The notes below the pieces were generated by a model that did not search any database, was not told the origin of the DNA, and saw nothing but the letters and a program-made list of their open reading frames with translations. A stretch of 64,000 bases of DNA from Vicinamibacteria bacterium (GTDB lineage Bacteria > Acidobacteriota > Vicinamibacteria > Marinacidobacterales > Marinacidobacteraceae): positions 1,472,001-1,536,000 of the forward strand of contig CAXXLQ010000004.1 in assembly GCA_963668695.2 (NCBI GenBank), given 5' to 3'. How positions within the stretch are numbered: the first letter of the stretch is position 1; each line of letters begins with the position of its first letter. Of this stretch, positions 3,028 to 43,964 are shown piece after piece. The position numbers and the translations under genes are program-made.

Positions 3028-3622
3028 GCAGCCTGTGGACAAAGTTACGCGGTATTCCCGAGCCAGAAGGGATGGTGGTCGGGTGACCCCGCCCCCCGTC
3101 CCTTCCGCTCCGGGGTCTCCGCGGTGCTGGCGCCCCGCTCCGGAAGCCCGAGCCAGAAGGGATGGTGGTCGGGTGACCCCGCCCCCCGTCCCTTCCGCTC
3201 CGGGGTCTCCGCGGTGCTGGCGCCCCGCTCCGGAAGCCCGAGCCAGAAGGGATGGTGGTCGGGTGACCCCGCCCCCCGTCCCTTCCGCTCCGGGGTCTCC
3301 GCGGTGCTGGCGCCCCGCTCCGGAAGCCCGAGCCAGAAGGGATGGTGGTCGGGTGACGACGCCCCCCGTCCCTTCCGCTCCGGGGTCTCCGCGGTGCTCG
3401 CGCCCCGCTCCGGAAGCGACCGGCGATGCATCCCGGCTGAACCGTGACGCTTCGCGTCGCTCATCGTTGCGCTTCGGTCGAAATACGCTCGGGCCAGTTC
3501 TCCCGGTGGGGGCTCCTCCCTCGCGCGCCTTGTCAGCCGGGCCCCCACCGGGAGGACTGGCCCCACCGGGAGAACTGGGCCTCACCGGTCTCGGTACTCA
3601 CGTCCCCTTATCCACAGGCTGC
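3028..3622. mobile_element. MITE locus 1 (180-bp backbone + 4 x 90-bp array + three 18-nt inserts)
   Basis: Terminal inverted repeats GCAGCCTGTGGACAAAG / CCTTATCCACAGGCTGC; internal sequence shared with five other loci. Confidence 0.85.
3057..3416. repeat. 4 x 90-bp tandem double-hairpin unit (variant B), inserted inside MITE locus 1
   Basis: Unit starts at 3057, 3147, 3237 and 3327; removing it rejoins CGCGGTATT|CGACCGGCG, matching the MITE backbone. Confidence 0.95.
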
Positions 3623-3630
3623 TGACCCTC

Positions 3631-4194
3631 TTGCATCCGTCGAAGGCCGCTGGCGAGCCCGGGATTCCGCCTGGGATTCGGCCTGGGATTCGGGTCGTCG
3701 GGCTCGATCCCGGCTCGCGGATCACCGGCTGGGGAGCGGTGGAGGAGACGGAGGGCAGGCTCCGGGTCGTGGACTACGGGACCGTGCGGTGCTCACCCCG
3801 TGCCCCGCTTGTGCTGCGCCTCCAAACGCTCCATCGGGAAATCGGGGAAGTCATCAGGCGGCTTCATCCCGATGAAGTCGCCGTGGAGACGGTCTTCAGC
3901 GCGGTGAGCGCCGGCGCGGCTCTCACCCTCGGACACGCCCGTGGCGCTGTCCTGGTGACTGCGGCGGATCTGCCCGTCGCCGAATACAGCCCGCGCTCTG
4001 TCAAACAGGCGCTTACCGGATACGGAGCGGCCGGCAAGGGTTCGGTGGCCAGCATGGTGGCCCGGCGACTCGGGATGGCCGACCCGCCGGCCTCGGAGGA
4101 CGCGGCGGACGCGCTCGCCGTCGCCATTTGCCATCTGGACGCCCGGCGGGCCAAGGCCCGTCTGGCCCGTGCCACCCAGGGACGATCCGGGTGA
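3631..4194 (+). CDS. ruvC: Holliday junction endonuclease RuvC
   Basis: RVVGLDPG, VAVETVF, EYSPRSVKQALTGYG, DAADALAVAICH; start uncertain. Confidence 0.95.
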   Translation: MHPSKAAGEPGIPPGIRPGIRVVGLDPGSRITGWGAVEETEGRLRVVDYGTVRCSPRAPLVLRLQTLHREIGEVIRRLHPDEVAVETVFSAVSAGAALTLGHARGAVLVTAADLPVAEYSPRSVKQALTGYGAAGKGSVASMVARRLGMADPPASEDAADALAVAICHLDARRAKARLARATQGRSG

Positions 4195-4793
4195 TCGAGC
4201 GCCTCGCCGGCAGGCTGCTTGCGACTGGCGAAGGCCATGTCGTGCTTGACGTCCATGGGATCGGTTTCCGGCTGCAGGTATCGACGGGCACCGCGTCGCG
4301 CCTTGGAGTTCCGGGAGACGAGATATCGCTCACCGTCCGGATGTTGCTGCATCGCGAGGAGACCGTTCAGCTCTACGGATTCCGAGAGACTGAAGAAGCG
4401 GTCCTCTTCGACCAGCTCCGGGGAGTCAGTGGGGTGGGCCCTTCCGTGGCCCTGAATCTCCTGTCGCTGTCCGTTCCGCGGCTGCGCCAGGCCATCCGGG
4501 ACAAGGAAGTGAAGCTGCTCCAGGCAGCTCCGGGAGTGGGCGCAAAACTGGCGCGCCGCCTCATTACGGAACTTGCGGAGGCGCTGCCGGAGGAGGAAAG
4601 CCCGGCAGCGCCGGCGGTCGAGGCGCGAGATCCGGTGCGCGAGGCGTTGGTCACCGCCTTCACCAACCTGCAGTTCACCGACCGGCGCCGCATCGAGGAA
4701 GTCGTGCAATCCGTCCGGGCCGAAAAGCCCGACGCCGACCTGCAGGATCTCTTCAAGGTGGCTCTCAGTCGCCTGTCCGCTCGAGGATCCTGA
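4191..4793 (+). CDS. ruvA: Holliday junction branch migration protein RuvA
   Basis: GTG overlapping the ruvC stop; MIERLAG...DVHGIGF...QLYGF...VSGVGP...PGVGAKLARRL. Confidence 0.95.
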   Translation: MIERLAGRLLATGEGHVVLDVHGIGFRLQVSTGTASRLGVPGDEISLTVRMLLHREETVQLYGFRETEEAVLFDQLRGVSGVGPSVALNLLSLSVPRLRQAIRDKEVKLLQAAPGVGAKLARRLITELAEALPEEESPAAPAVEARDPVREALVTAFTNLQFTDRRRIEEVVQSVRAEKPDADLQDLFKVALSRLSARGS

Positions 4794-5064
4794 GCAGCCT
4801 GTGAACAAAGTCACGCGGCCCAGTTCTCCCGGTGGGGGCTCGAGCGGCGATCCATCCCGGCTGAACCGCCCCCCCACCGGGAGAACTGGCGCTTCGCTTC
4901 GCTTATCGTTGCGCTTCGGTCGAAATACACTCGGGCCAGTTCTCCCGGTGCGGGCTCCTCCCTCGCGCGCCTTGTCAGCCGGGCCCCCACCGGGAGAACT
5001 GGCCCCACCGGGAGAACTGGGCCTCGCAGCTCTCGGCGCTCACGCCACTTTGTCCACCGGCTGC
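4794..5064. mobile_element. MITE locus 2 (backbone + five 18-nt inserts)
   Basis: GCAGCCTGTGAACAAAG ... CTTTGTCCACCGGCTGC; 271 bp, about 180 + 5 x 18. Confidence 0.85.
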
Positions 5065-5066
5065 CA

Positions 5067-7067
5067 ATGATCGCCCCTTCGCCCGCAGATACCAACGAGT
5101 TCTGGGACCGCGCCCACGCCCGGCTGAGAGAGGCATCCACGCTGCTCGGGCGGGTCCGCCGGATCTCGACGGGTCGATTGGCAGTCGTCGTGGTAGCACT
5201 CGCTTTGGCGCTTGGAGCCGGTGAGGCCGGGCTCTGGTCCCATTGGTGGATCGTCATCCCCTGCGGGTCGTTCGTCTGGCTGGCGTTCGTGCACGAGCGC
5301 CTCTGGAACCGGGCGCGCGGAGCGCAACACATCGCCCAGCTTTACCATCGGGCTGCGCTCCGGGTAGATCGCGATACCGAAGGAGAACCGGGCAGTCCCG
5401 ACACGCCGGCGGCGGCCATCCGAAGGGGCGGGCCCCCGGCTCATCGAAATACGGTCGACGAAGACCACCGCCTGGCGCATCGGCGCCACCGGATCTCGGA
5501 GCTTGCGGACGGCCAACTGGGAGACCATCTCGACCTCTTCGGATCCGGCGGGCTCTTCGAACGGCTCGCCGATTGGCGGACCGATGCCGGTGGAGAAACG
5601 CTGGCCGGATGGTTACTCCAACCCGCTCCTCCCGCGGAGGTGGCGTCCCGTCAGATTGCCATCCGGGAGCTCGCATCCCGAATCGAGATCCAGGAAACCC
5701 TGGCGGCTTCCGGCTGCCTCGAACCGTGGCCGAACGCTCGATCATCGGTGGTGCTGGATTGGTTGGGGCCGGGCGGTGCCGCCCGCGACGGGACACGACC
5801 GCCTCCGGCGGAAGAGGGTGAGGAAGGCTCCGAACCTGCCGGCCGCAAGACGGAAGTACTGCTCGGAGGTTTGGCAGTCCTCCTCAGCGTGGTCAACATG
5901 TTGGGGTTGTTCCGGTGGATGTACGTGGGCGATGCGTCCTTGTTCCTGGGCGCGGTGGCCCTGTCCGCGGCGCTGGGTCTGTGGCTCCGAGTGCGGGTTC
6001 GGGAACTAGAAGCCGCTCTGAGCCTGATGGAATCGGAGATCGCGGGCATCCGGCAGATCGCCCTGTCGGTGACCTCGGAGGGTTTCGATTCCCCGCTTCT
6101 TAGGGCACTTTCAAAGCGGCTCGCGCGCGCCCACGCGGCGCTCGGGAAGCTCGAACGACTGCAGCTTCGGCTGCGAGCCCGTCGCAACCTGCTCTTTGCG
6201 CCGGTAGCCGCGCTCTTGTTCTGGGGGACGCATCACACCTGGGCCATCGACCGTTGGCGTCGTCGGTACCAGCGGGAGGCGCGGGAGTGGATCCGAGCCG
6301 CAGGCGAGTTCGACGCACTCCTGGCGCTGGCGCAGTACGCCATCGAGCGTCCCGGGCACGTGTTCCCCGAGTTCGACGCCCTGCCGGGGTTCGAAGCAAA
6401 AGGTCTCGGCCATCCGTTGATCCCGGAAGTCCGTCTCCAGCGCAATGACGTTCGCCTCGGACGCGGAGAAGCGGATGTGCTGATCGTCACGGGTTCCAAC
6501 ATGTCCGGCAAGAGCACTCTGCTTCGGACCATCGGCGCCAATTTCGTCCTCGCGCGCATGGGTGCGCCGGTCACCGCTACCACCCTTCGGCTCGGGCCGC
6601 TCGCACTCGGCGCCTCGATCGCCGTCCATGACTCACTCCAGGACGGGGTCTCCCGCTTCCTGGCCGAACTCCTGGCGTTGAAGGCGGTACTGGATACCGG
6701 CTCAGCCGAGGAACCGCTGGTCTTCCTGCTGGACGAAGTGCTGCAGGGGACGAACTCGGATGACCGTAGAGCGGCCGCGGCTGCCTTGCTGCGCGAACTC
6801 GGCAGGCGTTCCGCCATCGGCGTGATGACCACCCACGATCTTTCGCTCACGGAGCTGGCCCACGAACTCCCGGGTCGGGTCCGTAACATGCATTTCACCG
6901 AACGGGTGGTGGACGGCGCCATGGAGTTCGACTATCAGCTTCGGGACGGCGTCCTCGCGCGCGGCAACGCCCTCGATCTGATGCGCATGCTCAATTTGCC
7001 CGTGCCCGAGGGGGAAGTGGCCGAGTTCACTTCACTTCCTGCCCCGGGTCCGGGGAGAGAGCACTGA
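5067..7067 (+). CDS. Membrane-anchored MutS-family ATPase (MutS domain V, no mismatch-recognition domain)
   Basis: Hydrophobic segments near the N-terminus and middle; GLGHPLI, IVTGSNMSGKSTLLR (Walker A), DSLQDGVSRFLAEL, LLDEVLQGTNS, TTHD. Confidence 0.9.
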   Translation: MIAPSPADTNEFWDRAHARLREASTLLGRVRRISTGRLAVVVVALALALGAGEAGLWSHWWIVIPCGSFVWLAFVHERLWNRARGAQHIAQLYHRAALRVDRDTEGEPGSPDTPAAAIRRGGPPAHRNTVDEDHRLAHRRHRISELADGQLGDHLDLFGSGGLFERLADWRTDAGGETLAGWLLQPAPPAEVASRQIAIRELASRIEIQETLAASGCLEPWPNARSSVVLDWLGPGGAARDGTRPPPAEEGEEGSEPAGRKTEVLLGGLAVLLSVVNMLGLFRWMYVGDASLFLGAVALSAALGLWLRVRVRELEAALSLMESEIAGIRQIALSVTSEGFDSPLLRALSKRLARAHAALGKLERLQLRLRARRNLLFAPVAALLFWGTHHTWAIDRWRRRYQREAREWIRAAGEFDALLALAQYAIERPGHVFPEFDALPGFEAKGLGHPLIPEVRLQRNDVRLGRGEADVLIVTGSNMSGKSTLLRTIGANFVLARMGAPVTATTLRLGPLALGASIAVHDSLQDGVSRFLAELLALKAVLDTGSAEEPLVFLLDEVLQGTNSDDRRAAAAALLRELGRRSAIGVMTTHDLSLTELAHELPGRVRNMHFTERVVDGAMEFDYQLRDGVLARGNALDLMRMLNLPVPEGEVAEFTSLPAPGPGREH

Positions 7068-8093
7068 ATGGGTGCGCCGAAGGCTCCGCCCGGCTACCCG
7101 GACGAAGAGTTCCACCAGAGCCTGCGGCCCCGGGACTTTGGGGAGTACGTGGGCCAGGGCGCGGTGCTCGAACAACTCGAGATCAGCGTCAGCGCCGCCC
7201 GGGCCCGGGGCGAGCCCCTCGATCACGTGCTCCTGCACGGGCCTCCGGGACTTGGCAAGACGTCGCTGGCCGCGGTGCTCGCCCGGGAACTCGATGTTCC
7301 CATGCACACTTCATCAGGACCGCTCGTACCCCGTACCGGCGACATGGTCGCGCTGCTCAGCTCGCTGGCGCGCAACGAGATCCTGTTCATTGACGAGATC
7401 CATCGTCTCGCTCCCGCCGTCGCCGAAGTCCTCTACCCGGCGATGGAGGACCACTACGTGGACATCATGGTCGGCGAGAAGATGGGAGCTCACAGCCTCC
7501 GAATCGATTTGCGGCCCTTCACGCTGATTGGGGCTACTACCCGCGCCGACCTGTTGACCGGCCCCCTCCGGGATCGATTTCCGCTCGTCCACCAGCTCGA
7601 GTTTTATTCCATCGCGGAGGTGGAGAGGGTTCTGGCGCGCGCCGCGCTGGTTCTGGGGGTACACCTGGAGCCGGACGCCGGACGGGACATCGCATCCCGG
7701 GCGCGTGGAACGCCCCGGGTCGCCAACAACCTGCTGCGCCGCGTGCGGGATTACGTCGAGGTGCGCAGCGATGGAACGATTCGCCGGGATACGGCGCTCG
7801 CGCTACTCGAGATTGCCCAGGTGGACGAGGAGGGGCTGGACCGCTTCGACCGCAAGATTTTGGCGAGCCTGCTCGACAACTTTTCCGGCGGGCCGGTGGG
7901 AGTGGCCAACCTCGCCGCCACGCTCGGCATGGACAACCGAACCCTGGAAGAGGTGCATGAGCCGTATCTCATCTACCGCGGCTTCCTGAGGCGGACAGGA
8001 AAAGGACGCATGATCACCGATCGGGGCGCGCGGCATCTGAGACGCGCGGCATCGGGAACGCTCTTTCCCGGTTCGCCGGCCGTCAAACAATGA
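7068..8093 (+). CDS. ruvB: Holliday junction branch migration helicase RuvB
   Basis: SLRP...YVGQ, HVLLHGPPGLGKT, LFIDEIHRL, FTLIGATTR, RGTPRVANNLLRRVRD. Confidence 0.98.
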   Translation: MGAPKAPPGYPDEEFHQSLRPRDFGEYVGQGAVLEQLEISVSAARARGEPLDHVLLHGPPGLGKTSLAAVLARELDVPMHTSSGPLVPRTGDMVALLSSLARNEILFIDEIHRLAPAVAEVLYPAMEDHYVDIMVGEKMGAHSLRIDLRPFTLIGATTRADLLTGPLRDRFPLVHQLEFYSIAEVERVLARAALVLGVHLEPDAGRDIASRARGTPRVANNLLRRVRDYVEVRSDGTIRRDTALALLEIAQVDEEGLDRFDRKILASLLDNFSGGPVGVANLAATLGMDNRTLEEVHEPYLIYRGFLRRTGKGRMITDRGARHLRRAASGTLFPGSPAVKQ

Positions 8094-8140
8094 GGGACCC
8101 CGGCGGCGGGTGACACCCCGGGTCTCCCGGACCTGATTTA

Positions 8141-8611
8141 GCAGCCTGTGGTGAAACCTGCGCGGCCCAGTTCTCCCGGTGGGGGCTCGGCCGGCGATCC
8201 ATCCCAGCCAAACAGCCTGTGATGAAACCCACGCGGCCCAGTTCTCCCGGTGGGGGCTCGGCCGGCGATCCATCCCGGCTGATCGCGTCGCGTCGCGTCG
8301 CTCATCGTTGCGTTTCGGTCGAAATACACCAGGTATTCCTCCCTCACGCGCCTTGTCAGCCGGGCCCCCACCGGGAGGACTGGCCCCACCGGGAGAACTG
8401 GGCCTTACCGGCCTCGGCGCTCACGCGGGTTCCACCACCGGCTGTTCACCGCGTCGCTGCGCGGCGCTCATCGTTGCGTTTCGGTCGAAATACACCAGGT
8501 ATTCCTCCCTCACGCGCCTTGTCAGCCGGGCCCCCACCGGGAGAACTGGCCCCACCGGGAGAACTGGGCCTCACCGGCCTCGGCGCTCACCCGGGTTCCA
8601 CTACCGGCTGC
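8141..8611. mobile_element. MITE locus 3: complete MITE (8212-8445) nested inside another copy
   Basis: Outer ends GCAGCCTGTGGTG / CTACCGGCTGC flanked by TA; inner ends ACAGCCTGTGATG / CACCGGCTGT. Confidence 0.85.
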
Positions 8612-8613
8612 TA

Positions 8614-9681
8614 GTGCGGACATCCGACTTCGCGTTCGACCTGCCCGCGGAACTCGTCGCCCAGGAACCGCCCACCGCGCGAAGCGACGCCCGCCTGCTG
8701 CACCTCGGCGCAGGTGGCCGGGCGGCGCACCGGAGATTTCCGGACCTTCCGGCGCTGCTACGGCCGGGGGACCTCCTGGTCCGGAACGTCACGCGGGTGA
8801 TTCCCGCGCGCGTTCCGGCCCACAAAGAGGTTGGCGGCGGGGGCGTCGAAGTGCTGATCCTTCCGGAGGAGGCAGCTCCGCGCGACCTTTTTCGCGCCCT
8901 GACCCGGCCGGCGCTCCGCCCGGGCGTGCGGCTCGTTGCTGGCGAAGGGGAAACCGTGCGTCTCGAGGTCGGTGAGGACCTTGGGGGCGGGCAGCGCCGG
9001 ATCCGGATTCTTTCGGGGGCGAAAGACCTGTTCGAGCTCGCCGGCAAGGTGGGCCGTACTCCGCTGCCGCCCTACATCCGCCGGGATCCACCGGGTTCGG
9101 AAGCACCGGGCGGCACCGACCGGGAGCGGTATCAGACGGTGTACGCTCGTTCCCCCGGTTCGGTCGCCGCTCCGACCGCCGGACTTCATTTCGATCTGCC
9201 CATGTTCGGGCGGCTGCAGGAGCGCGGGATAGCGGTGGCGGACCTCGTGCTGCATGTGGGGTACGGCACGTTCGCACCGGTGCGCGTGGAGGATCCTCGG
9301 GAACACGTATTGGCGGCCGAACGATTCTCGGTTCCGCCGGAGACCAGCCACGCCGTCCTTTCCCAACTGGCTGAGGGGCGGCGCGTCGTCGCAGTGGGGA
9401 CCACGACGGTGCGGGTGCTGGAGACGCCCGGGGTGCTCGAGCGCGGCGCGGGCGCCGGCGAGACCTCCCTGCTCATCCTTCCGGGTCACCGCTTCCGCGT
9501 GGTGTCCGCGATGCTGACCAACTTCCATCTGCCCGAGAGTTCGCTTCTCATGCTGGTCGCCGCGTTCGGCGGGACCGAAGCGGTGCTCGACGCCTATCGC
9601 GAGGCGGTCCGGGAGCGGTACCGCTTTTACTCCTACGGCGATGCCATGTTCGTGGAGAAGGGCGCGGCCGGGCCCCCGTAG
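8614..9681 (+). CDS. queA: S-adenosylmethionine:tRNA ribosyltransferase-isomerase QueA
   Basis: GTG start giving MRTSDFAFDLPAELVAQ; PLPPYI, RYQTVYA, AAPTAGLHF, TNFHLP, FYSYGDAM. Confidence 0.97.
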   Translation: MRTSDFAFDLPAELVAQEPPTARSDARLLHLGAGGRAAHRRFPDLPALLRPGDLLVRNVTRVIPARVPAHKEVGGGGVEVLILPEEAAPRDLFRALTRPALRPGVRLVAGEGETVRLEVGEDLGGGQRRIRILSGAKDLFELAGKVGRTPLPPYIRRDPPGSEAPGGTDRERYQTVYARSPGSVAAPTAGLHFDLPMFGRLQERGIAVADLVLHVGYGTFAPVRVEDPREHVLAAERFSVPPETSHAVLSQLAEGRRVVAVGTTTVRVLETPGVLERGAGAGETSLLILPGHRFRVVSAMLTNFHLPESSLLMLVAAFGGTEAVLDAYREAVRERYRFYSYGDAMFVEKGAAGPP

Positions 9682-9762
9682 AATTTGGCCGAGCATCATT
9701 GCCCGGGGAACGTCGCCAGGTCTCGGAGCGCCCCTGGGCCCAGCCGGGACGAGGGCCTTCCA

Positions 9763-10164
9763 ATGAAACGTTTACGAGTCGGCAGTGGGGTCTCGTGGGA
9801 GACCGAATTCGGCTACTCCCGGGCGACCAGGGTGGGCGACCGCATCCTCGTTTCGGGAACGACCGCGACCGGACCCGATGGGCCGGTGGCAATCGGCGAC
9901 CCGGAGGCCCAGACGCGATTCGCGCTGGAGAAGGTCCGCACCGCGGTCGAGGCGCTCGGCGGCAGTCTCGATGAGGTGGTGCGAACCCGGATCCATGTGA
10001 AACCGGGGGTCGATTGGGAAGCCGTGGCCAAAGTCCACGGGGAGTTCTTCGCGGCCGTCCGTCCGGCTTGCACGCTCACCTACGCGGATCTGGTCGGGGA
10101 GGAATACCTTGTCGAAATCGAGGTGGAAGCGGTGGTCGGCTGCGCCGCTCCGGAGGACGTATGA
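9763..10164 (+). CDS. RidA/YjgF family protein
   Basis: WETEFGYSRATRVG..ILVSGTT...VVRTRI...RPACT...LVEIEVEA. Confidence 0.9.
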   Translation: MKRLRVGSGVSWETEFGYSRATRVGDRILVSGTTATGPDGPVAIGDPEAQTRFALEKVRTAVEALGGSLDEVVRTRIHVKPGVDWEAVAKVHGEFFAAVRPACTLTYADLVGEEYLVEIEVEAVVGCAAPEDV

Positions 10165-13451: not shown

Positions 13452-13471
13452 CCTGGGCGAACGCGGGGCAA

Positions 13472-13922: not shown

Positions 13923-13933
13923 TGTCCGGCGGG

Positions 13934-15094: not shown

Positions 15095-15156
15095 GGGCGA
15101 GCCTCCAGAACGGGCGAGTTTATGGCCGGGAGCCGGCGACGGCCGCGGGATTGTTG

Positions 15157-20132: not shown

Positions 20133-20141
20133 CGGTCCTTC

Positions 20142-32499: not shown

Positions 32500-32502
32500 C
32501 GT

Positions 32503-32591: not shown

Positions 32592-32740
32592 GAGGTTCCG
32601 CGAATCGCTGCGCGATTCACTCCACCTTTTCCTGCGGGGAGGGAACACCCCTCCCCGCACCCCACCCCGGCGGCGCTCCGCGCCGCATGGTACGTGTCTA
32701 CTCGCAGTCACTCCAGACTGAGAAGACACGAGGCCGCGCG

Positions 32741-34243: not shown

Positions 34244-34917
34244 CGATCGCGAATCCAAAGGTGTCCACGCCTCGCTGGAGAATCGCGCCCACCGCGGCTC
34301 AACACGCGGAGGCGCTGGCCGAGCTCCAGCGCATCGTCTTTCCGACTCTGGACCCGTCGGAGCGCTTCGGTGCCGACCACTACCGCCGGCACGTCGAAAT
34401 CTTTCCCGGGGGTCAGTTCGTGGCCCTCGACGACGGGCGGCCGGAGACCCCGATTGCGGCGACCACGACCCTCCGGCTGAATCTCGATCTTGAGCATCCG
34501 CAGCACCGCTTCCCGGAGTTCCTGGGAGGGTTGTCGCTCAGTGCTCATGATCCGGCCGGGGAGTGGCTCTACGGGGCCGATCTCGGGGTCCACCCGGCCT
34601 GGAGGAGGCGAGGTATTGCCCGGGCGCTCTACGCGGCCCGGCAATCCGCCGCCGTTCAGCTCGGCCTGCGCGGCCAGCTCACCGTCGGCATGCTCAACGG
34701 CTACGGGGCGGTCGCCGATCGGATGAGCGCCGAGGAGTACTACGAGCAACTGGTGGCGGGGGTCCTCGAGGACCCCACGGTTTCCGCCCAGCTGCGGATC
34801 GGGTTTCGGCCGGGAGGACTGATTCCGGACTACGTTCAGGACCCGCGTTGCGGGGGCTACGGCGTCCTGCTCACCCTTCCGGTCGATCGTTGGCAGCCTG
34901 TGGTGGAACCCGCGTGA
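34240..34917 (+). CDS. GNAT family N-acetyltransferase
   Basis: FPGGQFVA, LYGADLGVHPAWRRRGIARALY, DPTVSAQLRIGF; TTG 34240 or GTG 34261; last codons lie within MITE locus 4. Confidence 0.88.
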   Translation: MTIANPKVSTPRWRIAPTAAQHAEALAELQRIVFPTLDPSERFGADHYRRHVEIFPGGQFVALDDGRPETPIAATTTLRLNLDLEHPQHRFPEFLGGLSLSAHDPAGEWLYGADLGVHPAWRRRGIARALYAARQSAAVQLGLRGQLTVGMLNGYGAVADRMSAEEYYEQLVAGVLEDPTVSAQLRIGFRPGGLIPDYVQDPRCGGYGVLLTLPVDRWQPVVEPA

Positions 34918-35125
34918 GCGCCGAGGCCGGTGAGGCGCTTGGCTGACAAGGCGCGTGAGGGAGGAATACCGGGTGTATTCCGACCGAAACGCAACGATGA
35001 GCGGCGCGCAGCGACGCGGTCAGCCGGGATGGATCGCCGGCCGAACGCCGCGCGGGTTTCATCACCGGCTGTTTGGCCGGGATGGATCGCCGGGCGAACG
35101 CCGCCGGGGTTTCACCACAGGCTGT
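34893..35125. mobile_element. MITE locus 4: insert-free 180-bp backbone (34893-35072) plus a fragment of an outer copy; reverse orientation
   Basis: GCAGCCTGTGGTGG ... CACCGGCTGT and ... CCACAGGCTGT; contains no 18-nt unit. Confidence 0.85.
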
Positions 35126-35306
35126 TAGGTCCCCGCTCGGGAACCGAGTGCCTAGCGCCAGTCACGGGCCCATCTGTAACATTCGCGGGTCACGCGCGTA
35201 GCGATAGCAAAGGCATTCCTTGATCCGCCCGCAAGGCGGTTGCCGGGTTCCCGGCAGGGGTCTGGAACCTTTGGGGAACGCGCCTCGTAGCGTCTGATGA
35301 CTCCGC

Positions 35307-36542: not shown

Positions 36543-36566
36543 TTTCGGGGCAAGGAGAACTCTCAG

Positions 36567-37358
36567 ATGAGTGAAACAGGGATTTCGGAAGGGATTTCGG
36601 AAACGGACGGCGGAAACGGAGCCGCGGCGGAAGCGATGGTGGATGTGCGGAACGTCACCCGGACCTTCCGCCGCGGCCGGACGCCGGTTCCGGTGTTGCG
36701 GGGCTTCACCCTGCGCATGGAAAAGGGAGATTTCCTCGCGCTCATGGGCCCCTCGGGCTCCGGGAAGTCCACGCTCTTGAACCTCGTTGCCGGGCTCGAC
36801 CGGCCGACCAGCGGCGAAGTGATCGTGGGCGGTTCCCCGATTCACAGCCTCTCCGAGCGGCGCCTGGCCGGCTGGAGGGCCCGCAACATCGGGTTCATCT
36901 TCCAGTTCTCGAACCTCCTCGGGGCGCTGAACGCCGAACGGAACGTCGCGGTGCCACTGCTGCTGACCTCGTTTTCCGCCCGCGAGCGACGCCGCCGGGT
37001 TGCCATCGCCCTCGAAATCGTCGGCCTTTCCGATCGGGCCAAACACCGTCCCCGGGAACTCTCGGGCGGTGAGCAGCAACGGGTCGGCATTGCTCGCGCT
37101 CTGGTGAACGATCCGGCGCTCCTGGTGTGCGACGAGCCGACCGGGGATCTCGACCGGGGGACGAGCAACGAGATTCTCGATCTGCTGGTGGCTCTCAACC
37201 GCGACCAGGGGAAGACCATCCTGATGGTGACGCACGACCCGGTCGCTGCGGAGCGTGCCTCCCGGGTGCTCCATCTCGAGGACGGCCGGCTGGCCGACTG
37301 CGGACACGACGGGACGATCGTGATGCCCGTCCACGAACCGGCCGGGGCGGCGGTATGA
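36567..37358 (+). CDS. ABC transporter ATP-binding protein (MacB/LolD-like)
   Basis: GPSGSGKST, LSGGEQQRV, DEPTGDLD, VTHD. Confidence 0.96.
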   Translation: MSETGISEGISETDGGNGAAAEAMVDVRNVTRTFRRGRTPVPVLRGFTLRMEKGDFLALMGPSGSGKSTLLNLVAGLDRPTSGEVIVGGSPIHSLSERRLAGWRARNIGFIFQFSNLLGALNAERNVAVPLLLTSFSARERRRRVAIALEIVGLSDRAKHRPRELSGGEQQRVGIARALVNDPALLVCDEPTGDLDRGTSNEILDLLVALNRDQGKTILMVTHDPVAAERASRVLHLEDGRLADCGHDGTIVMPVHEPAGAAV

Positions 37359-38515
37359 CTTCCTTCACGCTGATCAGCGCGGCGCTTCGGCGGAAGAAGA
37401 CCAGGACCTTCCTGACCTTCTCATCGGTGGTCTTCGCGTTCCTGATCTTTGGCGTTTTGTCCATGCTGCAGGCGGCCTTTTCGATGGGGGCCGATATCGC
37501 CAACGAGGACCGGCTGGTGGTGCGTCACCGGGTTTCGCTCTTCCAGCTTCTCCCGCAGTCCTATGAAGCCGACATGGAGGAGGTCCCCGGCGTCATCGAC
37601 GCCATGCACATGACCTGGTTCGGCGGCGTGTACCAGGATCAGCACAACTTCTTCATGCAGTCTCCGGTGGAACCCGCGGAATACCTCGACATGTATCCGG
37701 AGGTCTCGGTCCCGGAGGAGGCGAAGCTTCGCTGGATCGAAACCCGGAACGGCGCCATCGCCGGCCGCGCGCTCGTGGAGCGCTTCGGCTGGGAGGTCGG
37801 CGACCGGATCCCGCTTCAGCCCACCATCTGGCAGCAGCAGGGGAGGGGCGATGAGGCCTGGGAGTTCGAGCTGGTCGGCGTCTACGAGAGCGACGTCGAT
37901 GGCTTCGACGAGACCCAGTTCCTCTTCCGCTACGACTTCTTCGACGAGGCCCGTTCCTTCGGTCGGGGGCAGGTAGGGTGGTTCGCGGTGCGGATCGCAG
38001 ATCCGGATCGCGCCGCGGAGGTTGCCGCCGCGATCGACGATGCGTTCCGGAATTCCGCCGCCGAGACCAAGAGCGAGTCCGAGGGCGCGTTCGCGGCCGG
38101 GTTCGCGAACCAGGTCGGCAACCTGGGGCTGATCGTGACCTCGATCCTCGGTGCCGTCTTCTTCACCATCCTGCTGGTCGCCGGCAACACCATGGCGCAG
38201 TCGGTGCGCGAGCGGATCGGCGAGATCGGGCTGCTGAAGGCGCTCGGCTTCACGGCCACCCGGGTGCAGCGTCTCGTTCTCATGGAGTCGGTGACGCTGG
38301 TGACCACCGCGGGATTTTTGGGAATGGTCCTCGCGGTCGGGCTCGAGAAAGTTCTCCGGTCGGCGCTTTCGGCGTATTTCCCGGGCCTCTTCCTGCGGCC
38401 CGCGGATCTGTTGTTGGGGCTCGGTCTCGCGGTCGTGACCGGCCTCATCGTCGGGATCTTTCCGGCGCGGCGGGCGATGCGGCTGGAGACGGCGTTCGCG
38501 CTGCGCCGCCTGTAA
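37355..38515 (+). CDS. ABC transporter permease (MacB/FtsX family)
   Basis: R-x-KTRTFLT, periplasmic domain, NTMAQSVRERIGEIGLLKALGF. Confidence 0.93.
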   Translation: MTSFTLISAALRRKKTRTFLTFSSVVFAFLIFGVLSMLQAAFSMGADIANEDRLVVRHRVSLFQLLPQSYEADMEEVPGVIDAMHMTWFGGVYQDQHNFFMQSPVEPAEYLDMYPEVSVPEEAKLRWIETRNGAIAGRALVERFGWEVGDRIPLQPTIWQQQGRGDEAWEFELVGVYESDVDGFDETQFLFRYDFFDEARSFGRGQVGWFAVRIADPDRAAEVAAAIDDAFRNSAAETKSESEGAFAAGFANQVGNLGLIVTSILGAVFFTILLVAGNTMAQSVRERIGEIGLLKALGFTATRVQRLVLMESVTLVTTAGFLGMVLAVGLEKVLRSALSAYFPGLFLRPADLLLGLGLAVVTGLIVGIFPARRAMRLETAFALRRL

Positions 38516-38527
38516 GGGGTACGGAAA

Positions 38528-39724
38528 ATGGGCGTCCTTTCTCTCCTGCGGCAGTGCCAGGCGATCACCCGTTACAACCTCGAAACCATCTGGGAGCGCC
38601 GCGCGGTTTCGGTGGTCGCGATCTTCGGAATCGCCGGGGTTGTCGGGGTCCTCGTCGCCGTGCTCTCGATGGCCGCCGGATTCCGTGCGGTGGTGACCGG
38701 ACAGGCCCGGGACGATGTGGCGGTGGTGCTCCGGAGCGGTTCCATCGGTGAATCGGCGAGCATCCTGAACCATCAGGACATCCAGGTTCTCTGGGAGGCT
38801 CCGGGGGTGGCGAGGGGCCCGGACGGTCCGCTGGTTTCGCCGGAACTCTTCGTCATCATCGACCGCAAGAAGATAGGGGTGGGAACCGACGCGAACGTCC
38901 CGCTCCGGGGCGTGGAAGCCGCGGCCTTCGTGTTGCGCGACCAGATCGAAATCGTGGAGGGGCGGAACTTCGAGCCGGGCCGGAACGAGGTCATCGTCGG
39001 CGACGGCGCCGCGGGCGCCTTCGAGGGTCTGCTCGTCGGCGACCGGATTGATGTGGGGCGGGCCTCCTGGGAGGTGGTTGGTCGGTTCACTGCGGGAGGC
39101 GGCGTCGCCGAATCGGAGATCTGGACGGACACCCGCGTGCTCCAGCAGATGTACCGGCGCGGCAACTCCTGGAACGTGGCCCTCGTGCGTCTCACCGACG
39201 CCGACGCTTTCGAGGGGTTCGAGCAGGCGCTGACCGACGATCCGCGCGTGAGCCTCGGCGCCCAGCGGCAGACCACCTACATGGCCGCGCAATCCAGGCC
39301 GATCGAGGCCTTCATCTCGGTAGTCGGTTGGATCATCGTCGCCATGATGTCGGCGGGCGCGGTCTTCGCCGCGCTGAACACCATGTACGCGGCGGTGTCG
39401 TCGCGGTCCCGAGAGATTGCGACCCTACGCGCCCTCGGGTTCTCCCGGCTGCCGATCGTGATCTCGGTGATGATCGAGTCGCTCGTCTTCGGGCTGATCG
39501 GCGCGGCGGCAGGCGGCGCGGCGTCCTGGTTCCTGTTCGACGGGTTCCGGGCGGCGACGATCAACTGGGCCTCGTTCAGCCAGGTGGCCTTCGCCTTCGC
39601 GGTGACACCGGAGCTCCTCGTTCAGGGGATCGTTCTTGCCCTCGTCATCAGCGCCATCGGCGGTTTCCTGCCCGCGGTGGGCGCCGCCCGCCGCAGCGTG
39701 ATCGGGGCCCTGCGGGAACAGTAA
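38528..39724 (+). CDS. ABC transporter permease (MacB/FtsX family)
   Basis: LNTMYAAVSSRSREIATLRALGF, GGFLPA. Confidence 0.93.
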   Translation: MGVLSLLRQCQAITRYNLETIWERRAVSVVAIFGIAGVVGVLVAVLSMAAGFRAVVTGQARDDVAVVLRSGSIGESASILNHQDIQVLWEAPGVARGPDGPLVSPELFVIIDRKKIGVGTDANVPLRGVEAAAFVLRDQIEIVEGRNFEPGRNEVIVGDGAAGAFEGLLVGDRIDVGRASWEVVGRFTAGGGVAESEIWTDTRVLQQMYRRGNSWNVALVRLTDADAFEGFEQALTDDPRVSLGAQRQTTYMAAQSRPIEAFISVVGWIIVAMMSAGAVFAALNTMYAAVSSRSREIATLRALGFSRLPIVISVMIESLVFGLIGAAAGGAASWFLFDGFRAATINWASFSQVAFAFAVTPELLVQGIVLALVISAIGGFLPAVGAARRSVIGALREQ

Positions 39725-39775
39725 GGCCCGCCACCCGGCCGGGGCCGCCCCCGATCGGCGTGGGTGGCTCAGTTA

Positions 39776-40227
39776 ACAGCCGGTGGTGAAACCCACGTGA
39801 GCGCCGAGACCGGCCAGTTCTCCCGGTGGGGGCGAGGCGCCCGGCTGACAAGGCGCGTGAGGGAGGAGCCCCCACCGGGAGAACTGGCCCGGGTGTATTT
39901 CGACCGAAACGCAACGATGAGCGGCGCGAAGCGACGCGGGTAACAGCCTGTGGTGGGACCCGGGTGAGCGCCGAGGCCGGCCAGTTCTCCCGGTGGGGGC
40001 GAGGCGCCCGGCTGACAAGGCGCGTGAGAGAGGAGCCCCCACCGGGAGAACTGGCCCGGGTGTATTTCGACCGAAACGCAACGATGAGCGGCGCGAAGCG
40101 ACGCGGTTCAGCCGGGATGGATCGCCGGCCGAACGCCGCGCGGGTTCCATTGCAGGCTGTTTGGCCGGGATGGTTCGCCGCTCGAGCCCCGGGAGAACTG
40201 GGCCGCGTGACTTTGTCTACCGGCTGT
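39776..40227. mobile_element. MITE locus 5: complete MITE (39943-40160) nested inside another copy; reverse orientation
   Basis: Outer ACAGCCGGTGGTG / CTTTGTCTACCGGCTGT; inner ACAGCCTGTGG / TGCAGGCTGT; five 18-nt-type inserts. Confidence 0.85.
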
Positions 40228-42358
40228 TGAGCCCGCGCCGCCGGAGCAGCGGCTCCACGTCCGCGTCCCGCCCGCGGAACGTGCGGAAGAGATCCATCGC
40301 CTCGACGCTGCCACCCTTCGAGAGCAGCGTTTGCCGGAAGTGGTCGCCGTTTTCGCGCTTCAGGCCGTCGTTCTCCTTGAACCATTCGACTGAATCGGCG
40401 TCCAGGACCTCGCTCCAGATGTACGAGTAGTAACCGGCTGAATAGCCGCTGCTCCAGATGTGCGAGAAATAGGTGCTCCGGTAGCGGGGCGGCACCGGAG
40501 CAAAGGCGACCCCCGCCGCTTCCAGCGCGGACTCTTCGAACGCGAGGACGCCGTCGGCTTCCGGAACGTCGGAAGCGTCGAGTTGATGCCAGGCCAGATC
40601 CAGCAGCGTGGCCGCCAGGTATTCGGTGGTGGCGAAACCCTGGTTGAAAGTGCGCGCCGACAGCACCCGGTCGAGGAGGTCCGCCGGAATCGGCTCCCCG
40701 GTTTCGTAGTGGACCGCGTAGTTCCGGAGCACCTCCGGCCAGGTGGCCCACATCTCGTTCACCTGCGAGGGGTATTCGACGAAATCCCGCGGCACCGAGG
40801 TTCCCGCGAAGTAGGGGTAGCGGACGCTCGAAAACAGGCCGTGGAGCGCGTGTCCGAACTCGTGGAACATCGTGATGACTTCGTCGAAGGTCAGCAGCGT
40901 CGCTTCCCCCTCGGGAGGTTTCGGGATGTTCAGATGGTTCGCGACGACCGGTTTCGTTCCCAGGAGGTTTGACTGGGAGACGTAGGCGTTCATCCAGGCG
41001 CCGCCCCGCTTCGACGGCCGGGCGTAGAAGTCGCCGATGAAGAGTCCGAGCGGGGAGCCGTCCTCCTCGAAGACCTCCCAGATGCGCACATCCGGGTGAT
41101 AGACCGGCAGTTCGGGCCGTTCTTCGAAGCGGAGGCCGAAGAGCTGGTTTGCGGCGTGGAAGACGCCGTTTACCAGGACGCCGTTCATCTCGAAGTAGGG
41201 CTTGAGTTGCGAGGCGTCAAATGAGAACCGTTGGGCTCGGAGCTTTTCGGAGTAGTACGACCAGTCCCAGGCGGCGATCTCGATATCGGCGCCCTCGGAT
41301 CGGGCGAGCGCCGCCAGGTCGTCGGCTTCCCGGCGCGCGTTGGCCACTGCCGCCGGGGCAAGCCCCGCGAGGCGCCCGTTCACGGCCTCGATGGTCTGCG
41401 CCGTCTGCTCCTCAAGGACATAGGCGGCGTGGTGCGGGTATCCGAGCAGCCCGGCGCGCTCGGCGCGGAGCGCCGCGATCTTCACGATCACCTCGCGGTT
41501 GTCGTGTTCCCCCCCGCGACTGCCCCGCGTGAGCGAGGTATTCGCGATCTGCTCCCGCAGTGCGCGATCTTCGAGCGATGAGAGGGCCGGCTGGCCGCTG
41601 GTGTTCAGGAGGGCGATCACGTACTTGCCATCGAGGTCGCGCGCCTTCGCCGCCTCGGCCGCGGCGGCGATTTCCCCTTCGGAAAGTCCGGCGAGTTCCT
41701 CGGCGGTATCCACCACCACTGCCGAGGCGTTCACCTCGTTCAGGGTGTTGTCGCTGAAGGCGGCCGAAAGGGAAGCGACTTCGGCGTTGATCTCCCGCAT
41801 GCGCTCCTTCTCGGGTTCCGAGAGCTGGGCGCCGGCGCGGGTGAAGTCGCGCCGGTACTGCTCCACCAGCCGCACTTCCTCGGGCGAGAGTCCGGCGGCC
41901 TCGCGCCCCTCGAAAAGCGCCTCCACCCGGGCGAAGAGGTCGGCGTTCAGCAGGATCTGGTCCGAGTGGGCCGCCAGCTTGGGCGCCATCTCGGCGCGGA
42001 TGGCATTGATCTCGTCGTTCGTATCGGCGGACGACAAGCTGAAGAAGACCCGCGCCACCTGGTCGAGCAGACGCCCCGACCGCTCCATGGCGACGAGGGT
42101 GTTCTCGAGGGTGGCCGGCTCCGAGGACGACGCGATCGCCTCCACCTCCTCGATCTGCTCGGCCATCCCGCGCTCGAACGCTCCCCGGTAGTGACCGTCC
42201 TCGATGAGGTCGAAGGCGGGCAGCCCGTAAGGGAGGCTGCTCTCGGCAAAGAAGGGGTTGTCGTCCATCTCTGGCTCAGGCGTCCCGCCGCAGCCGGCGG
42301 CGAGGATCAGCGTCAGGACCGGGGCCGCCGCGGCGGCCGGGAGGTGGCGGCTGTACAT
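40217..42358 (-). CDS. dcp: M3 family peptidyl-dipeptidase Dcp, lipoprotein
   Basis: LILAAGC lipobox, KRGGAWM, FHEFGHALH, RDFVEYPSQ, GYSAGYYSYIW; AGGAG RBS. Confidence 0.93.
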   Translation of the reverse strand: MYSRHLPAAAAAPVLTLILAAGCGGTPEPEMDDNPFFAESSLPYGLPAFDLIEDGHYRGAFERGMAEQIEEVEAIASSSEPATLENTLVAMERSGRLLDQVARVFFSLSSADTNDEINAIRAEMAPKLAAHSDQILLNADLFARVEALFEGREAAGLSPEEVRLVEQYRRDFTRAGAQLSEPEKERMREINAEVASLSAAFSDNTLNEVNASAVVVDTAEELAGLSEGEIAAAAEAAKARDLDGKYVIALLNTSGQPALSSLEDRALREQIANTSLTRGSRGGEHDNREVIVKIAALRAERAGLLGYPHHAAYVLEEQTAQTIEAVNGRLAGLAPAAVANARREADDLAALARSEGADIEIAAWDWSYYSEKLRAQRFSFDASQLKPYFEMNGVLVNGVFHAANQLFGLRFEERPELPVYHPDVRIWEVFEEDGSPLGLFIGDFYARPSKRGGAWMNAYVSQSNLLGTKPVVANHLNIPKPPEGEATLLTFDEVITMFHEFGHALHGLFSSVRYPYFAGTSVPRDFVEYPSQVNEMWATWPEVLRNYAVHYETGEPIPADLLDRVLSARTFNQGFATTEYLAATLLDLAWHQLDASDVPEADGVLAFEESALEAAGVAFAPVPPRYRSTYFSHIWSSGYSAGYYSYIWSEVLDADSVEWFKENDGLKRENGDHFRQTLLSKGGSVEAMDLFRTFRGRDADVEPLLRRRGLNSR

Positions 42359-42436
42359 ATCTGTTGCTCCTGTTTCTGGGTGGGGTCTGCCCGACGATGT
42401 CCGCAGGGCGCCGATCGTGCGCTGCGGGAGGGTCCG

Positions 42437-42508
42437 TCATGAAGCGCTCCACCGGCGCAGCAGGGGAACCCCGCAGCCGGCGAACTCCCGGACGTTGACG
42501 ATGATCAC
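42437..42508 (-). pseudogene. Remnant of FitB/VapC PIN toxin (large internal deletion)
   Basis: GTGA-coupled start MIIV joined directly to the typical FitB C-terminus NVREFAGCGVPLL..W. Confidence 0.7.
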
Positions 42509-42767
42509 GGGGAGAAGTTCTCGGAGCTGAAATCCGGCGGTTCCCGCATCGGCTCGCGCGGCGGCAGCTGAGTTCCACACCGCCAATGGGCTCGACGAGC
42601 CTTCGGATTGCGTCGTACAGGTTTTCTCGCGGGCCGGGATCAGCGTCCACAACGGTTGTCAGGATGGTGCGCGCTTCCGCTTCCATGGACCTCCCGTTCT
42701 CGGCCGCACGGATGCGAAGACGCTTCTTCGTGGTTTCGTCGAGGTTGCGGATCGAAAGATTGGCCGT
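42505..42767 (-). pseudogene. FitA/StbC-like ribbon-helix-helix antitoxin, inactivated
   Basis: GGAGG RBS followed by ACG in the start position; ANLSIRNLDETTKKRLRIRAAENGRSMEAEARTIL; frameshift after GGVEL, with LPPREPMREPPDF continuing in another frame. Confidence 0.8.
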
Positions 42768-42867
42768 AACCGGGACCTCCCCGAGGACCGGGATTCTACG
42801 TTTGGCCCATACCCGCATGGTTCCGGCCGGTTCCGTATCGTGCCCCACGGACGTCCGGGGGCGGGGT

Positions 42868-43680
42868 TCAGTAGCCGGGGTTTTCCACATCGACTTCGAC
42901 GATGCGGTTGCGCCTGGGGTTGTGGCGCTCGTTGCGGTAACCACGAGGGTTGGCGACGAACCAGACATCCGCCCCGGATGTCCGGTCCCGGAAGAACGCC
43001 GGGTGGTGAGTGTGCCCGAAGCACCAGACCCGCATCTTGGCGAGGAGCCCGCGCCCGGCGTTTCTCACTTCCTCGAACAGCCCGTTGTAGTACGAGCCGT
43101 TCGACGCCGGCTCATAGCCATCCCGGAGACCGCCGGAATGGGGAACCGAGTGCGTCACGACGACGACATGCTCGACGGCTGGATCGTCGCGAGCGCATTC
43201 GAGCTGGCGGAACAGGGTGCGCCTCGATTCTTCCCACCGTTCCAGCGCCTGCTGCGGGTCGCCCCCCGGGAAGACGAGCCGCGCGTCATTGGAGCGCGAG
43301 CTCCACCACTCCGATTGCGCCCGAAACGAACCGGAAGACGGCTCCCGGAATTGGTACCAGCCGTTTGCGCCGGCGAAAGCCGTGTTGCCGAGACAAAACG
43401 GCCCTTTCCGGTCGAGATAGTGGATATTCGCGGAGAACGCTTCCTGGAGCCGATCCCGCGTCCGGTCGATTTCGCCTCCTGACGAATAGAACTCGTGGTT
43501 CCCGTCCACGAACACGACTTGCCCGTACTCCCGCGCCAGCGCGGTCACCGCCGCCGCCGTCACCTCCACCCCGTTGCCCACATCGCCGGCGATCACCAGC
43601 GTCTCTGAATCACCGGTGCGGAGAGGCCGGCCGCGCCAGCCGGTGTCCTCATGGACATCCGAAACCAGATCGAACCGCAA
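42868..43680 (-). CDS. Calcineurin-like metallophosphoesterase
   Basis: SDVH, AGD, GNHEFY, VTH, GHTH, NPRGY. Confidence 0.92.
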   Translation of the reverse strand: MRFDLVSDVHEDTGWRGRPLRTGDSETLVIAGDVGNGVEVTAAAVTALAREYGQVVFVDGNHEFYSSGGEIDRTRDRLQEAFSANIHYLDRKGPFCLGNTAFAGANGWYQFREPSSGSFRAQSEWWSSRSNDARLVFPGGDPQQALERWEESRRTLFRQLECARDDPAVEHVVVVTHSVPHSGGLRDGYEPASNGSYYNGLFEEVRNAGRGLLAKMRVWCFGHTHHPAFFRDRTSGADVWFVANPRGYRNERHNPRRNRIVEVDVENPGY

Positions 43681-43693
43681 TCGGTTTCTCCTA

Positions 43694-43964
43694 GCCGCCG
43701 GTGGTGAAACTCACGTGAGCGCCGAGACCGGTGAGGCCCAGTTCTCCCGGTGGGGCCAGTCCTCCCGGTGGGGGCCCGGCTGACAAGGCGCGTGAGGGAG
43801 GAGCCCCCACCGGGAGAACTGGCCCGGGTGTATTTCGACCGAAACGCAACGCAGAACGCAGCGAAGCGGAGTGGTTCAGCCGGGGCCCCCACCGGGAGAA
43901 CTGGGGATCGCCGGTCGAGCCCCCACCGGGAGAACTGGGCCGCGTGGGTTTTGCCACCGGCTGC
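43694..43964. mobile_element. MITE locus 6 (backbone + five 18-nt inserts); reverse orientation
   Basis: GCCGCCGGTGGTG ... CCACCGGCTGC flanked by TA on both sides; 271 bp. Confidence 0.85.

Follow-up and report, generated by a model that had tools for sequence, protein, structure and literature searches.

How can a piece of DNA of only 18 nt come to lie many times over, and in both orientations, within copies of a miniature inverted-repeat transposable element (MITE)? This question was raised by a window of 64,000 nucleotides (the whole stretch of DNA that was analysed, G000:C4:1472001-1536000) from the genome of a Vicinamibacteria bacterium, for which a preliminary description had proposed that a separate micro-element, the unit CCAGTTCTCCCGGTGGGG, entered the MITE repeatedly with local overwriting of bases. 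The insertion junctions and the indels at orthologous loci supported this proposal. The unit moves independently of the MITE; the finding is real, lies far beyond chance and is no artefact, and its mechanism is potentially new. We consider it probable that the unit is a micro mobile element of 20 nt, which is written into resident repeats at CCGG^T-like motifs and from then on hitch-hikes with them. The source genome, G000, comprises 4.10 Mb in 4 contigs, has a GC content of 67%, and is near-closed and 91.7% complete. All of the genomes compared are metagenome assemblies, among which G001, G004, G008, G009, G010 and G014 belong to the same genus as G000, and G018 to a sister genus.

A search of either strand of the window for CCAGTTCTCCCGGTGGGG, with up to 2 mismatches, gave 23 matches, 18 of which were exact; the chance expectation is 0.01, and none of 100 dinucleotide-preserving shuffles reached 23. 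The preliminary description had counted about 24 copies (3, 5, 6, 0, 5 and 5 per locus), beginning at 3495. Our counts (3, 5, 6, 0, 4 and 5) agree except at the fifth locus, where the 24th copy proved to be truncated, with CAC missing, and the first unit begins one base earlier, at 3494. Across G000 we found 1631 copies with up to 2 mismatches, 1288 of them exact, with 829 on the plus strand and 802 on the minus strand, grouped in 609 clusters. Conservation of the flanks is limited to two positions per side (-2, G in 92%; -1, G in 60% or C in 39%; +1, G in 86%; +2, C in 88%), and the true unit is a block of about 20 nt, namely the 18-mer followed by GC and sometimes preceded by G. Its period is 18 nt and its length, counting the conserved flanks, 20-21 nt, and the head-to-tail doublets reported earlier recur throughout the genome, with 151 junctions at zero spacing. 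A lone unit with its flanks forms no hairpin and no palindrome (DNA fold of -2.8 kcal/mol, z=+0.63), while inverted pairs of units form stems of 22-25 bp (-36 kcal/mol, z=-7.2). Direct reading and folding revealed no terminal inverted repeats, the flank-inclusive ends sharing at most 3-4 bp of complementarity. No replication-strand bias of the units was detected (strand counts of 422/428 vs. 372/343, p=0.36). Scanning the window against Rfam at the gathering thresholds gave 0 matches, as did a search for the 20-mer in viral contigs. Stop-to-stop frames of at least 250 codons hold 77% of the units and 91% of G000, so that genes and spacers are not separable in this way.

The anatomy of the insertions is defined by their target sites. 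Locus 4 of the window (35072..34894, minus strand, 179 bp) carries no unit, as had been proposed, and this empty MITE served as the reference backbone. A unit-free backbone query found about 650 MITE copies in G000, and 1294 of the 1631 units (about 79%) mapped within MITE alignments. The six backbone sites described from the window, three in each orientation, were recovered genome-wide, and a rare seventh was added. The unit counts in G000 are as follows, with the backbone position and the orientation of the unit:

Site A, position 26, plus: 280 units
Site F, position 42, plus: 3 units
Site B, positions 54-59, minus: about 72 units
Site C, position 105, plus: 312 units
Site D, position 136, minus: 389 units
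Site E, position 142/143, minus: 212 units
Rare seventh site, position 145, plus: 12 units

The junctions were read between backbone anchors in hundreds of filled and empty copies. At site A, the empty junction CGGC-GT-T (114 copies) corresponds to the filled junction CGGC-[18]-GC-T (207 copies), where [18] stands for the 18-mer; at site C, CCGG-TAT-T corresponds to CCGG-G[18]GC-T, and at site F, AT corresponds to [18]GC. These three sites bear out the earlier statement that the two bases next to the GGGG end usually become GC, whereas at site B an empty GC is replaced by the unit and GG, and sites D and E overwrite nothing. Site D gains 18 nt between GGGC and GCCTC and holds a monomer, a doublet or up to five units; site E gains 19 nt. 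The common rule is that 0-3 bases, which usually include a T, give way to a block of about 20 nt, for a net gain of 18 or 19 nt; CCGG is the commonest left context. Target duplication, reported as lacking from the few loci of the window, never occurs in these much larger samples.

All 23 units of the window lie within copies of one MITE family, in agreement with the earlier observation of units only there, but genome-wide this does not hold. Of the 337 units outside the MITE alignments, 82 lie in partial MITEs or head modules, 163 in a second family and its kin, and 92 in other contexts, many of which are deleted MITE derivatives. Family 2, a target family that the earlier work had not seen and that accounts, with its kin, for at least 163 units, is a hairpin like a repetitive extragenic palindromic (REP) sequence, GGGAACGCCGG..ACCGGC, followed by a second hairpin. 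Units enter its stem beside the loop at GGGAACGCCGG^T, where GCCGG-TG-TTCAC becomes GCCGG-[18]GC-TTCAC (+18) and GCCGG-T-CTTCAG becomes GCCGG-[18]GC-CTTCAG (+19). In G018, the unit is itself a target: 54 unit-in-unit nestings occur at CCCGG^T^GGGG, with T replaced by the unit and GC as in the other targets. No such nesting was found in G000, G001, G004, G008 or G031. At four loci of this sister genus (L005, L006, L014 and L029), a second unit variant, CCGGTTCTCCCGGTAGGG, occupies MITE sites of its own beside the standard unit, which suggests that the micro-element has subfamilies.

It might be supposed that the MITE was once longer, with the units as ancestral parts of it that were lost by deletion, and the length arithmetic indeed works both ways on paper. 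The numbers of empty and filled copies of site C were 308 and 328 in G000, 160 and 150 in G001, 97 and 0 in G010, 55 and 0 in G009, and 31 and 0 in G014, so that 183 of 183 copies are empty in the last three genomes. When empty, site C is part of a perfect hairpin (GGAATAC/GTATTCC), and in family 2 the unfilled target is perfectly palindromic. Because three congeners are all-empty at site C, the empty hairpins are perfect and deletion could not rebuild TAT, GT or TG, the empty state is ancestral. The units are also far less diverged than the backbone that carries them: the exact 18-mer was present in about 96-97% of the filled A and C sites, compared with a mean pairwise identity of 87% among MITE backbones, in which paralogs differ at about 13% of positions. 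An adapter or assembly artefact, the other scenario under which the finding would dissolve, is excluded by the presence of the motif in many independent assemblies of metagenome-assembled genomes (MAGs), 21 of the 41 related genomes included, as well as in contigs from the sequencing runs of several studies. Taken together, we give loss from a longer MITE, or an artefact, a practically negligible probability.

To follow the unit at single loci, repeat loci of G000 were anchored by 300-bp unique flanks in 0.4 Mb of G004 and 1.2 Mb of G001. Among 126 anchored pairs, 55 had no MITE in the relative, 66 were alignable and 26 were clean (at least 90% identity and no indel larger than 60 nt). Sixteen of the 26 clean pairs differed by at least one precise unit indel, giving 28 events in total (17-19 or 35-37 nt). 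At C4:1454706, for example, there are 0 units in G000, 1 in G004 and 4 in G001, although the sequence is otherwise 95% identical. Mismatches around the 28 events amounted to 31 of 161 (19.3%) in the 3 adjacent bases, 38 of 1096 (3.5%) at 4-25 nt and 140 of 4125 (3.4%) beyond (p=0.93). Since there is no substitution excess at 4-25 nt, no flank came along with the unit, and ordinary gene conversion does not explain the events; given the 13% divergence between paralogous MITEs, transfers with even 10 nt of flank would have shown.

The MITE copies of the window, with the strand of each copy and of its units, are as follows:

Locus 1, 3494..3578: partial MITE (3417-3602) with units 3494-3511 (plus, site C), 3543-3560 (minus, T>C variant) and 3561-3578 (minus), the last two forming a site D doublet
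Locus 2, 4795..5063, plus strand: full MITE between ruvA and the next gene, with 5 units, 4820-4837 (plus, A), 4872-4889 (minus, B), 4936-4953 (plus, C, 1 mismatch), and 4985-5002 and 5003-5020 (minus, D doublet)
Locus 3, 8142..8610, plus strand: head module 8142-8208 (unit 8167-8184); full MITE 8212-8445 with units 8238-8255 (plus), 8366-8383 and 8384-8401 (minus) and an empty site C (TAT); partial MITE 8438-8610 with units 8532-8549 and 8550-8567 (minus)
Locus 4, 34894..35072, minus strand: empty 179-bp MITE with 0 units and the unfilled sites GGC-GT-TCGG, CCGG-TAT-TCC and GCC-AAGC-GCCTC
Locus 5, 39776..40227, minus strand: two MITE copies and a head module, with units 39814-39831 (plus, E), 39870-39887 (minus, C), 39981-39998 (plus, E) and 40037-40054 (minus, C), and the truncated unit at about 40187-40201
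Locus 6, 43697..43963, minus strand: full MITE with 5 units, 43738-43755 and 43756-43773 (plus, D doublet, the second being the T>C variant), 43805-43822 (minus, C), 43887-43904 (minus, F) and 43921-43938 (minus, A)

Each E/C pair of units at locus 5 gives a hairpin stem of 22-25 bp. Two of these loci differ among relatives. The ortholog of locus 2 in G004 lacks exactly the 36-nt D doublet, and in G001 and G008 there is no MITE at this place; locus 6 has 5 units in G000 and in G001 and 2 in G004, where the D doublet and the F unit are absent. The MITE of locus 1 belongs to a composite repeat of about 570 bp (window 3058-3624), which recurs in at least 8 further places in G000 with 88-95% identity and is the element described earlier as 180 + 360 + 54. 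Nearby, a 12-nt unit of the gggattc type is repeated three times at 3657-3693, just upstream of or at the start of a ruvC-like gene, and one contig of run X8 lacks 12 nt there.

The MITE itself also varies in a modular way. Its first 53 bp or so (71 bp with a unit) occur as head-to-tail modules ahead of full copies, both in the window (8142-8208 and 35073-35120) and genome-wide. Pairs of units at a spacing of exactly 53 nt numbered 109 in G000, and in three instances orthologs are distinguished by blocks of 53 nt; change of the head module is thus a second kind of modular change within the MITE. In addition, some short derivatives have one unit connecting the left flank of site A with the right flank of site C (C4:126857, 593953, 1200282, 3424088, 3473237, 3900618 and others), which is the product expected of recombination between two direct units, and there are mini-copies in which both MITE ends enclose a single unit (for example, C4:668229 and 2348083).

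Occupancy of the sites is combinatorial, with 44 patterns among 369 full-length MITEs, and it is statistically independent between sites D and E and between site B and each other site. Nevertheless, several observations weigh against a micro mobile element. First, occupied A, C and D sites tend to occur together (odds ratios of 2.4-5.6). A FastTree tree of the backbones (369 rows, about 145 columns) required 83-106 changes per site, compared with about 95-125 in shuffles, and is too poorly resolved to count independent insertions; occupancy changes on this tree were 15-30% below the shuffles, and part of the pattern is simple inheritance. Second, a T>C variant of the unit is bound to certain sites, reaching 22% at D, 21% at E and 16% in family 2, compared with 0.4% at A, 0.6% at C and 0% at B, and a TT+TC doublet was gained or lost as one 36-nt block at site D of at least 4 orthologous loci. 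Both observations are better accounted for by donors at the same site, or by inheritance, than by donors taken at random. Third, unit density was 2.70 per 180 bp at the G000 loci without a MITE in G001 and 2.51 at the shared loci, and most of the 1631 copies, beyond what the preliminary description foresaw, probably spread as passengers of transposing MITEs and not by single insertions. Fourth, 3 loci with 7 events could be polarised with both relatives: 3 events were common to G000 and G001, 2 were found in G001 alone, and 2 were found in G001 and G004 but not in G000; the last two need either parallel gain or a loss that restored the original bases. Fifth, only 20 units in G000 have non-repeated flanks, and most of these still bear a short family-2 motif. 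With nearly no unit in unique DNA, every event falls at a type of site that is also filled elsewhere, as paralog-to-paralog transfer would also give. Sixth, the evidence comes from metagenome assemblies, in which read-level polymorphism is not demonstrable: on window positions 3200-5400, the MITE parts collect Logan contigs of all paralogs, and a join 4984>5021 that skips the 36-nt doublet in 4 runs has sides of 19-25 nt and so is not assignable to locus 2. Finally, the mover is a hypothetical actor, no enzyme having been found by our searches.

Much of this bears on very short-patch ectopic conversion, a scenario in which the unit entered each type of site once or a few times by rare accident, after which heteroduplex or loop repair passed it, with 2-3 adjacent bases, between filled and empty paralogs in either direction and without a dedicated factor. 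The recurrence of the same two alleles at each site (at site C, for example, TAT and G[18]GC), the site-bound variants, the block-wise movement of the doublets, the two polarised events that resemble losses and the lack of any unit found in truly unique DNA of G000 are all consistent with it. However, the substitution profile of the 28 events would restrict its tracts to less than about 25 nt, with no homology-length requirement; the at least 8-10 unrelated contexts, which include another repeat family and the unit itself, would still need non-homologous insertion; and the exact conservation of the 18-mer across genera would be left unexplained. We regard this scenario as unlikely, while taking it seriously.

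The conservation of the unit was examined both within orthologs and across the order. In 42 units common to orthologs, 8 of 756 positions differed, whereas the backbone differed at 184 of 4575 (p=7e-6); when misaligned columns were admitted to the count, the figure for the units was 25 of 807, with no significant difference from the backbone. The exact 18-mer was present in 21 of 41 relatives, which belong to a single family and represent 5 of its genera; none of the 16 genomes from the order's two other families contained it. All 15 genomes of the genus contain it, with 5 to 1288 copies, fragmented assemblies probably being undercounted. A scan of public genomes with a 21-mer matched mainly MAGs titled Candidatus Marinacidobacterium, Vicinamibacteria or Acidobacteria, and one titled Gammaproteobacteria.

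Such constancy raises the alternative that the unit is mainly a functional motif (one bound by a host protein, for instance, or used as a signal for uptake or processing) that has been kept and multiplied by selection rather than by mobility of its own. In its favour, the exact 18-mer is retained in five genera, the rate of change of shared units is about a quarter of that of the backbone, and the stems formed by inverted pairs are very stable. One unit (first base T) at G000:C4:3267755 (L090 3256-3273) lies directly upstream of the GTG start of a gene for a DUF819 membrane protein, where its reverse complement places GGGAG about 10 nt before the start; this arrangement is kept in a congener (L003), and a series of tandem repeats of about 15 nt follows. 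Yet selection creates no precise 18-nt insertions, so that a writing mechanism would still be required. Moreover, 3-6 copies are piled up per MITE, some congeners live with at most 83 copies, and a motif of this kind gains no support from the Rfam scan, the unstructured lone unit (z=+0.6) or the even distribution over the replication strands. We consider it improbable that the unit is mainly a functional motif.

If the unit is mobile, a mover should exist, and we searched for one with six-frame hidden Markov model searches of G000. First, the Y1/RAYT transposase (REP-associated tyrosine transposase; PF01797) had 0 matches in G000, although the control search was positive in 6 of 14 known genomes. 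Second, reverse transcriptase (RVT_1, PF00078) had 0 matches in G000, which leaves the suggested process templated by RNA or reverse transcriptase unsupported. Third, TnpB (PF07282) gave a sub-threshold match alone in G000, and the serine recombinase/resolvase domain (PF00239) had 0 matches in G000, G004 and G018. Neither RVT_1 nor the resolvase domain thus has any match in G000, a genome of 4.1 Mb that is very rich in MITEs. Fourth, the single GIY-YIG match in G000 lies in a 664-aa open frame, which we take to be UvrC. A donor linked to RAYT or IS110 had also been envisaged; besides the lack of RAYT, the single IS110 transposase copy of G000 shows no link to the unit. This copy (C4:482399, locus L184) lies inside a family-2 REP-like hairpin, a few bases from the entry point of units. 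As a mover it was rejected: there are no unit-like ends at C4:482399, IS110 counts across relatives track those of units only loosely, and G031 has 36 units and no IS110 match. (The IS110 and PF00239 tallies across relatives include one unpublished genome, G027, on which no claim rests.) The neighbours of the one unit in near-unique DNA (DUF819, FAA hydrolase and methyltransferase genes) gave no lead to a mover.

These results bear on the view that a known small-repeat system moves the unit, whether REP sequences and their doublets (REPINs) with a RAYT of the Y1 HUH type, single-strand transposition of the IS200/IS605 type, a templated process with reverse transcriptase, or an Ssn-type GIY-YIG nuclease with a hairpin motif. 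The lack of target duplication, the precise ends and the hairpin-stem targets do recall single-strand HUH transposition. Apart from the domain searches, however, the unit is not palindromic, has no GTAG/CGTC tag and shows no strand bias, and we find this view very hard to credit. A not yet recognised protein is, we think, more likely as the mover than the transposase families searched.

We return to the micro mobile element as the probable reading. Under this model, CCAGTTCTCCCGGTGGGG would be the core of a non-coding element of about 20 nt that forms head-to-tail multimers with an 18-nt period. A trans-acting, sequence-specific activity would write the block into a few short GC-rich targets, mostly right after CCGG or GGC, where it would replace the next 0-3 bases (T, GT, TG, AT or TAT; GC at site B) with a net gain of 18 or 19 nt and no duplication. 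The targets would comprise six MITE spots, the family-2 hairpin stem beside the loop (GGGAACGCCGG^T..ACCGGC) and, in G018, the unit's own CCCGG^T. Units inside a MITE would be copied along with its transposition, giving rise to most of the 1631 copies, and direct units could recombine and delete the MITE interior. The data establish the anatomy of the unit, its target and overwrite rules, its gain or loss at orthologous MITEs with no co-conversion of the flanks, the ancestral nature of the empty state, the slower change of units relative to the backbone and their confinement to one bacterial family. From these we infer that most events were insertions for which existing copies were the donors, and that the block is recognised by a factor dedicated to it. 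More tentatively, and at somewhat below even confidence, we propose that the unit may represent a class of mobile DNA that is new, a non-palindromic 'patch' of 20 nt. A sequence-specific machine, either a protein or one that depends on a guide, would copy it from existing copies into CCGG^T-like motifs and replace 1-3 bases there, by a chemistry unlike that of DDE, HUH, serine/tyrosine recombinase or reverse transcriptase transposition, with the exact sequence held constant across genera as the recognition site of the machine.

Other models were considered and rejected. Hairpin-templated copying from an inverted partner does not suit the strongest association, which is between the same-orientation sites A and C, or the existence of lone units (C4:1454706 in G004). 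Models of circular permutation, GG-core recombination and 2-bp GC duplication do not yield the observed junction products. A footprint of an excised larger element is not favoured, as the halves of the unit are not inverted repeats; split units were not sought systematically.

The unit, which resides in Acidobacteria of the sponge type, is among the smallest mobile pieces of DNA seen. How repeats too short for transposase-binding ends spread has, to our knowledge, been an open question since the small dispersed repeats (SDRs) of cyanobacteria were described in 2008. The present lineage offers a clean system for it, with a genus of which several genomes are closed or nearly so, target copies by the hundred in both the filled and the empty state, a defined overwrite rule, congeners that have the MITE with a given site unfilled, and a self-nesting sister genus. 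The mover could be found by differential gene content and tested on a plasmid. If it is a new enzyme, the writing of a defined 20-nt block at a short motif, with replacement of a few bases, would be relevant to mobile DNA and to genome-writing tools; if only very short-patch transfer is at work, the interiors of bacterial MITEs evolve through a process that, per site, outpaces base substitution several-fold.

No published description was found for Marinacidobacterium, nor among the matches listed on miniature inverted repeats of Acidobacteria or sponge symbionts. The unit was therefore compared with known kinds of repeats. Lacking inverted ends and target duplication, the 18-mer is not itself a MITE. 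Tandem slippage, as in variable-number tandem repeats, resembles the site D arrays, which vary by whole units (0, 1, 2, up to 5), but cannot explain single units at 8 or more unrelated sites. Uptake sequences (DUS/USS) are evenly dispersed, many of them in genes, in naturally competent lineages; the copies of the unit in G000 are clustered in 609 groups inside repeats. The 0 RVT_1 matches in G000 set the unit apart from retroelements of the retron, diversity-generating and group II types, and the lack of a Y1 match, the sub-threshold TnpB and the absence of replication-strand orientation bias (p=0.36) from IS200/IS605 elements (PATE).

Bacterial interspersed mosaic elements (BIMEs) of E. coli and BOX elements of pneumococcus are composite intergenic mosaics, whose module variation is attributed to recombination or slippage. 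As in these, small modules vary in number and order among copies. Unlike them, the variable part here is one 20-nt block, which occurs in unrelated contexts and two orientations, overwrites bases and changes at orthologous loci.

REP/REPIN sequences, as far as they are treated in the account of Bertels & Rainey 2011 (PMC3116915), are palindromic and have a cognate RAYT gene. To judge from that account, the unit resembles them in being short, high-copy, extragenic, often arranged as inverted hairpin pairs and conserved in a lineage, and differs in being non-palindromic, in having no GTAG/CGTC head at either end and no Y1 match in G000, and in inserting within other repeats at fixed positions. 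In the system of Ssn nucleases and SRM/NTS hairpins, the parts of the report of Chenal et al. 2025 (PMC11893778) considered here describe an NTS hairpin of about 30 bp and a GIY-YIG partner gene. The likeness to what is described there lies in a short motif with hundreds of copies, for which a single small protein is the presumed dedicated reader, and the approach of seeking a gene with a matching distribution carries over to the present case; the unit, however, forms no hairpin, and the sole GIY-YIG match of G000 is in the 664-aa frame.

The closest known kind is the SDRs, and the likeness drawn in the preliminary description was apt. SDR1-8 of Nostoc-type cyanobacteria, reportedly described by Elhai and colleagues in 2008, are said to be about 21-27 nt long, with SDR4-6 forming hairpins. 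The unit comes close to their size class and is like them in being very short, in having hundreds to thousands of copies, in being nested in larger repeats and sometimes tandem, and in being present or absent at otherwise identical loci with no target duplication and no known mover. SDRs of heterocystous cyanobacteria are described in brief in PMC3116915 and PMC2884548. Unlike the SDRs, the unit resides in a host of the Acidobacteriota (Vicinamibacteria), its 18-nt period and 20-nt block lie slightly below the range of about 21-27 nt, it is not a hairpin, and its overwriting of 1-3 target bases and its preference for CCGG^T are defined here on hundreds of sites.

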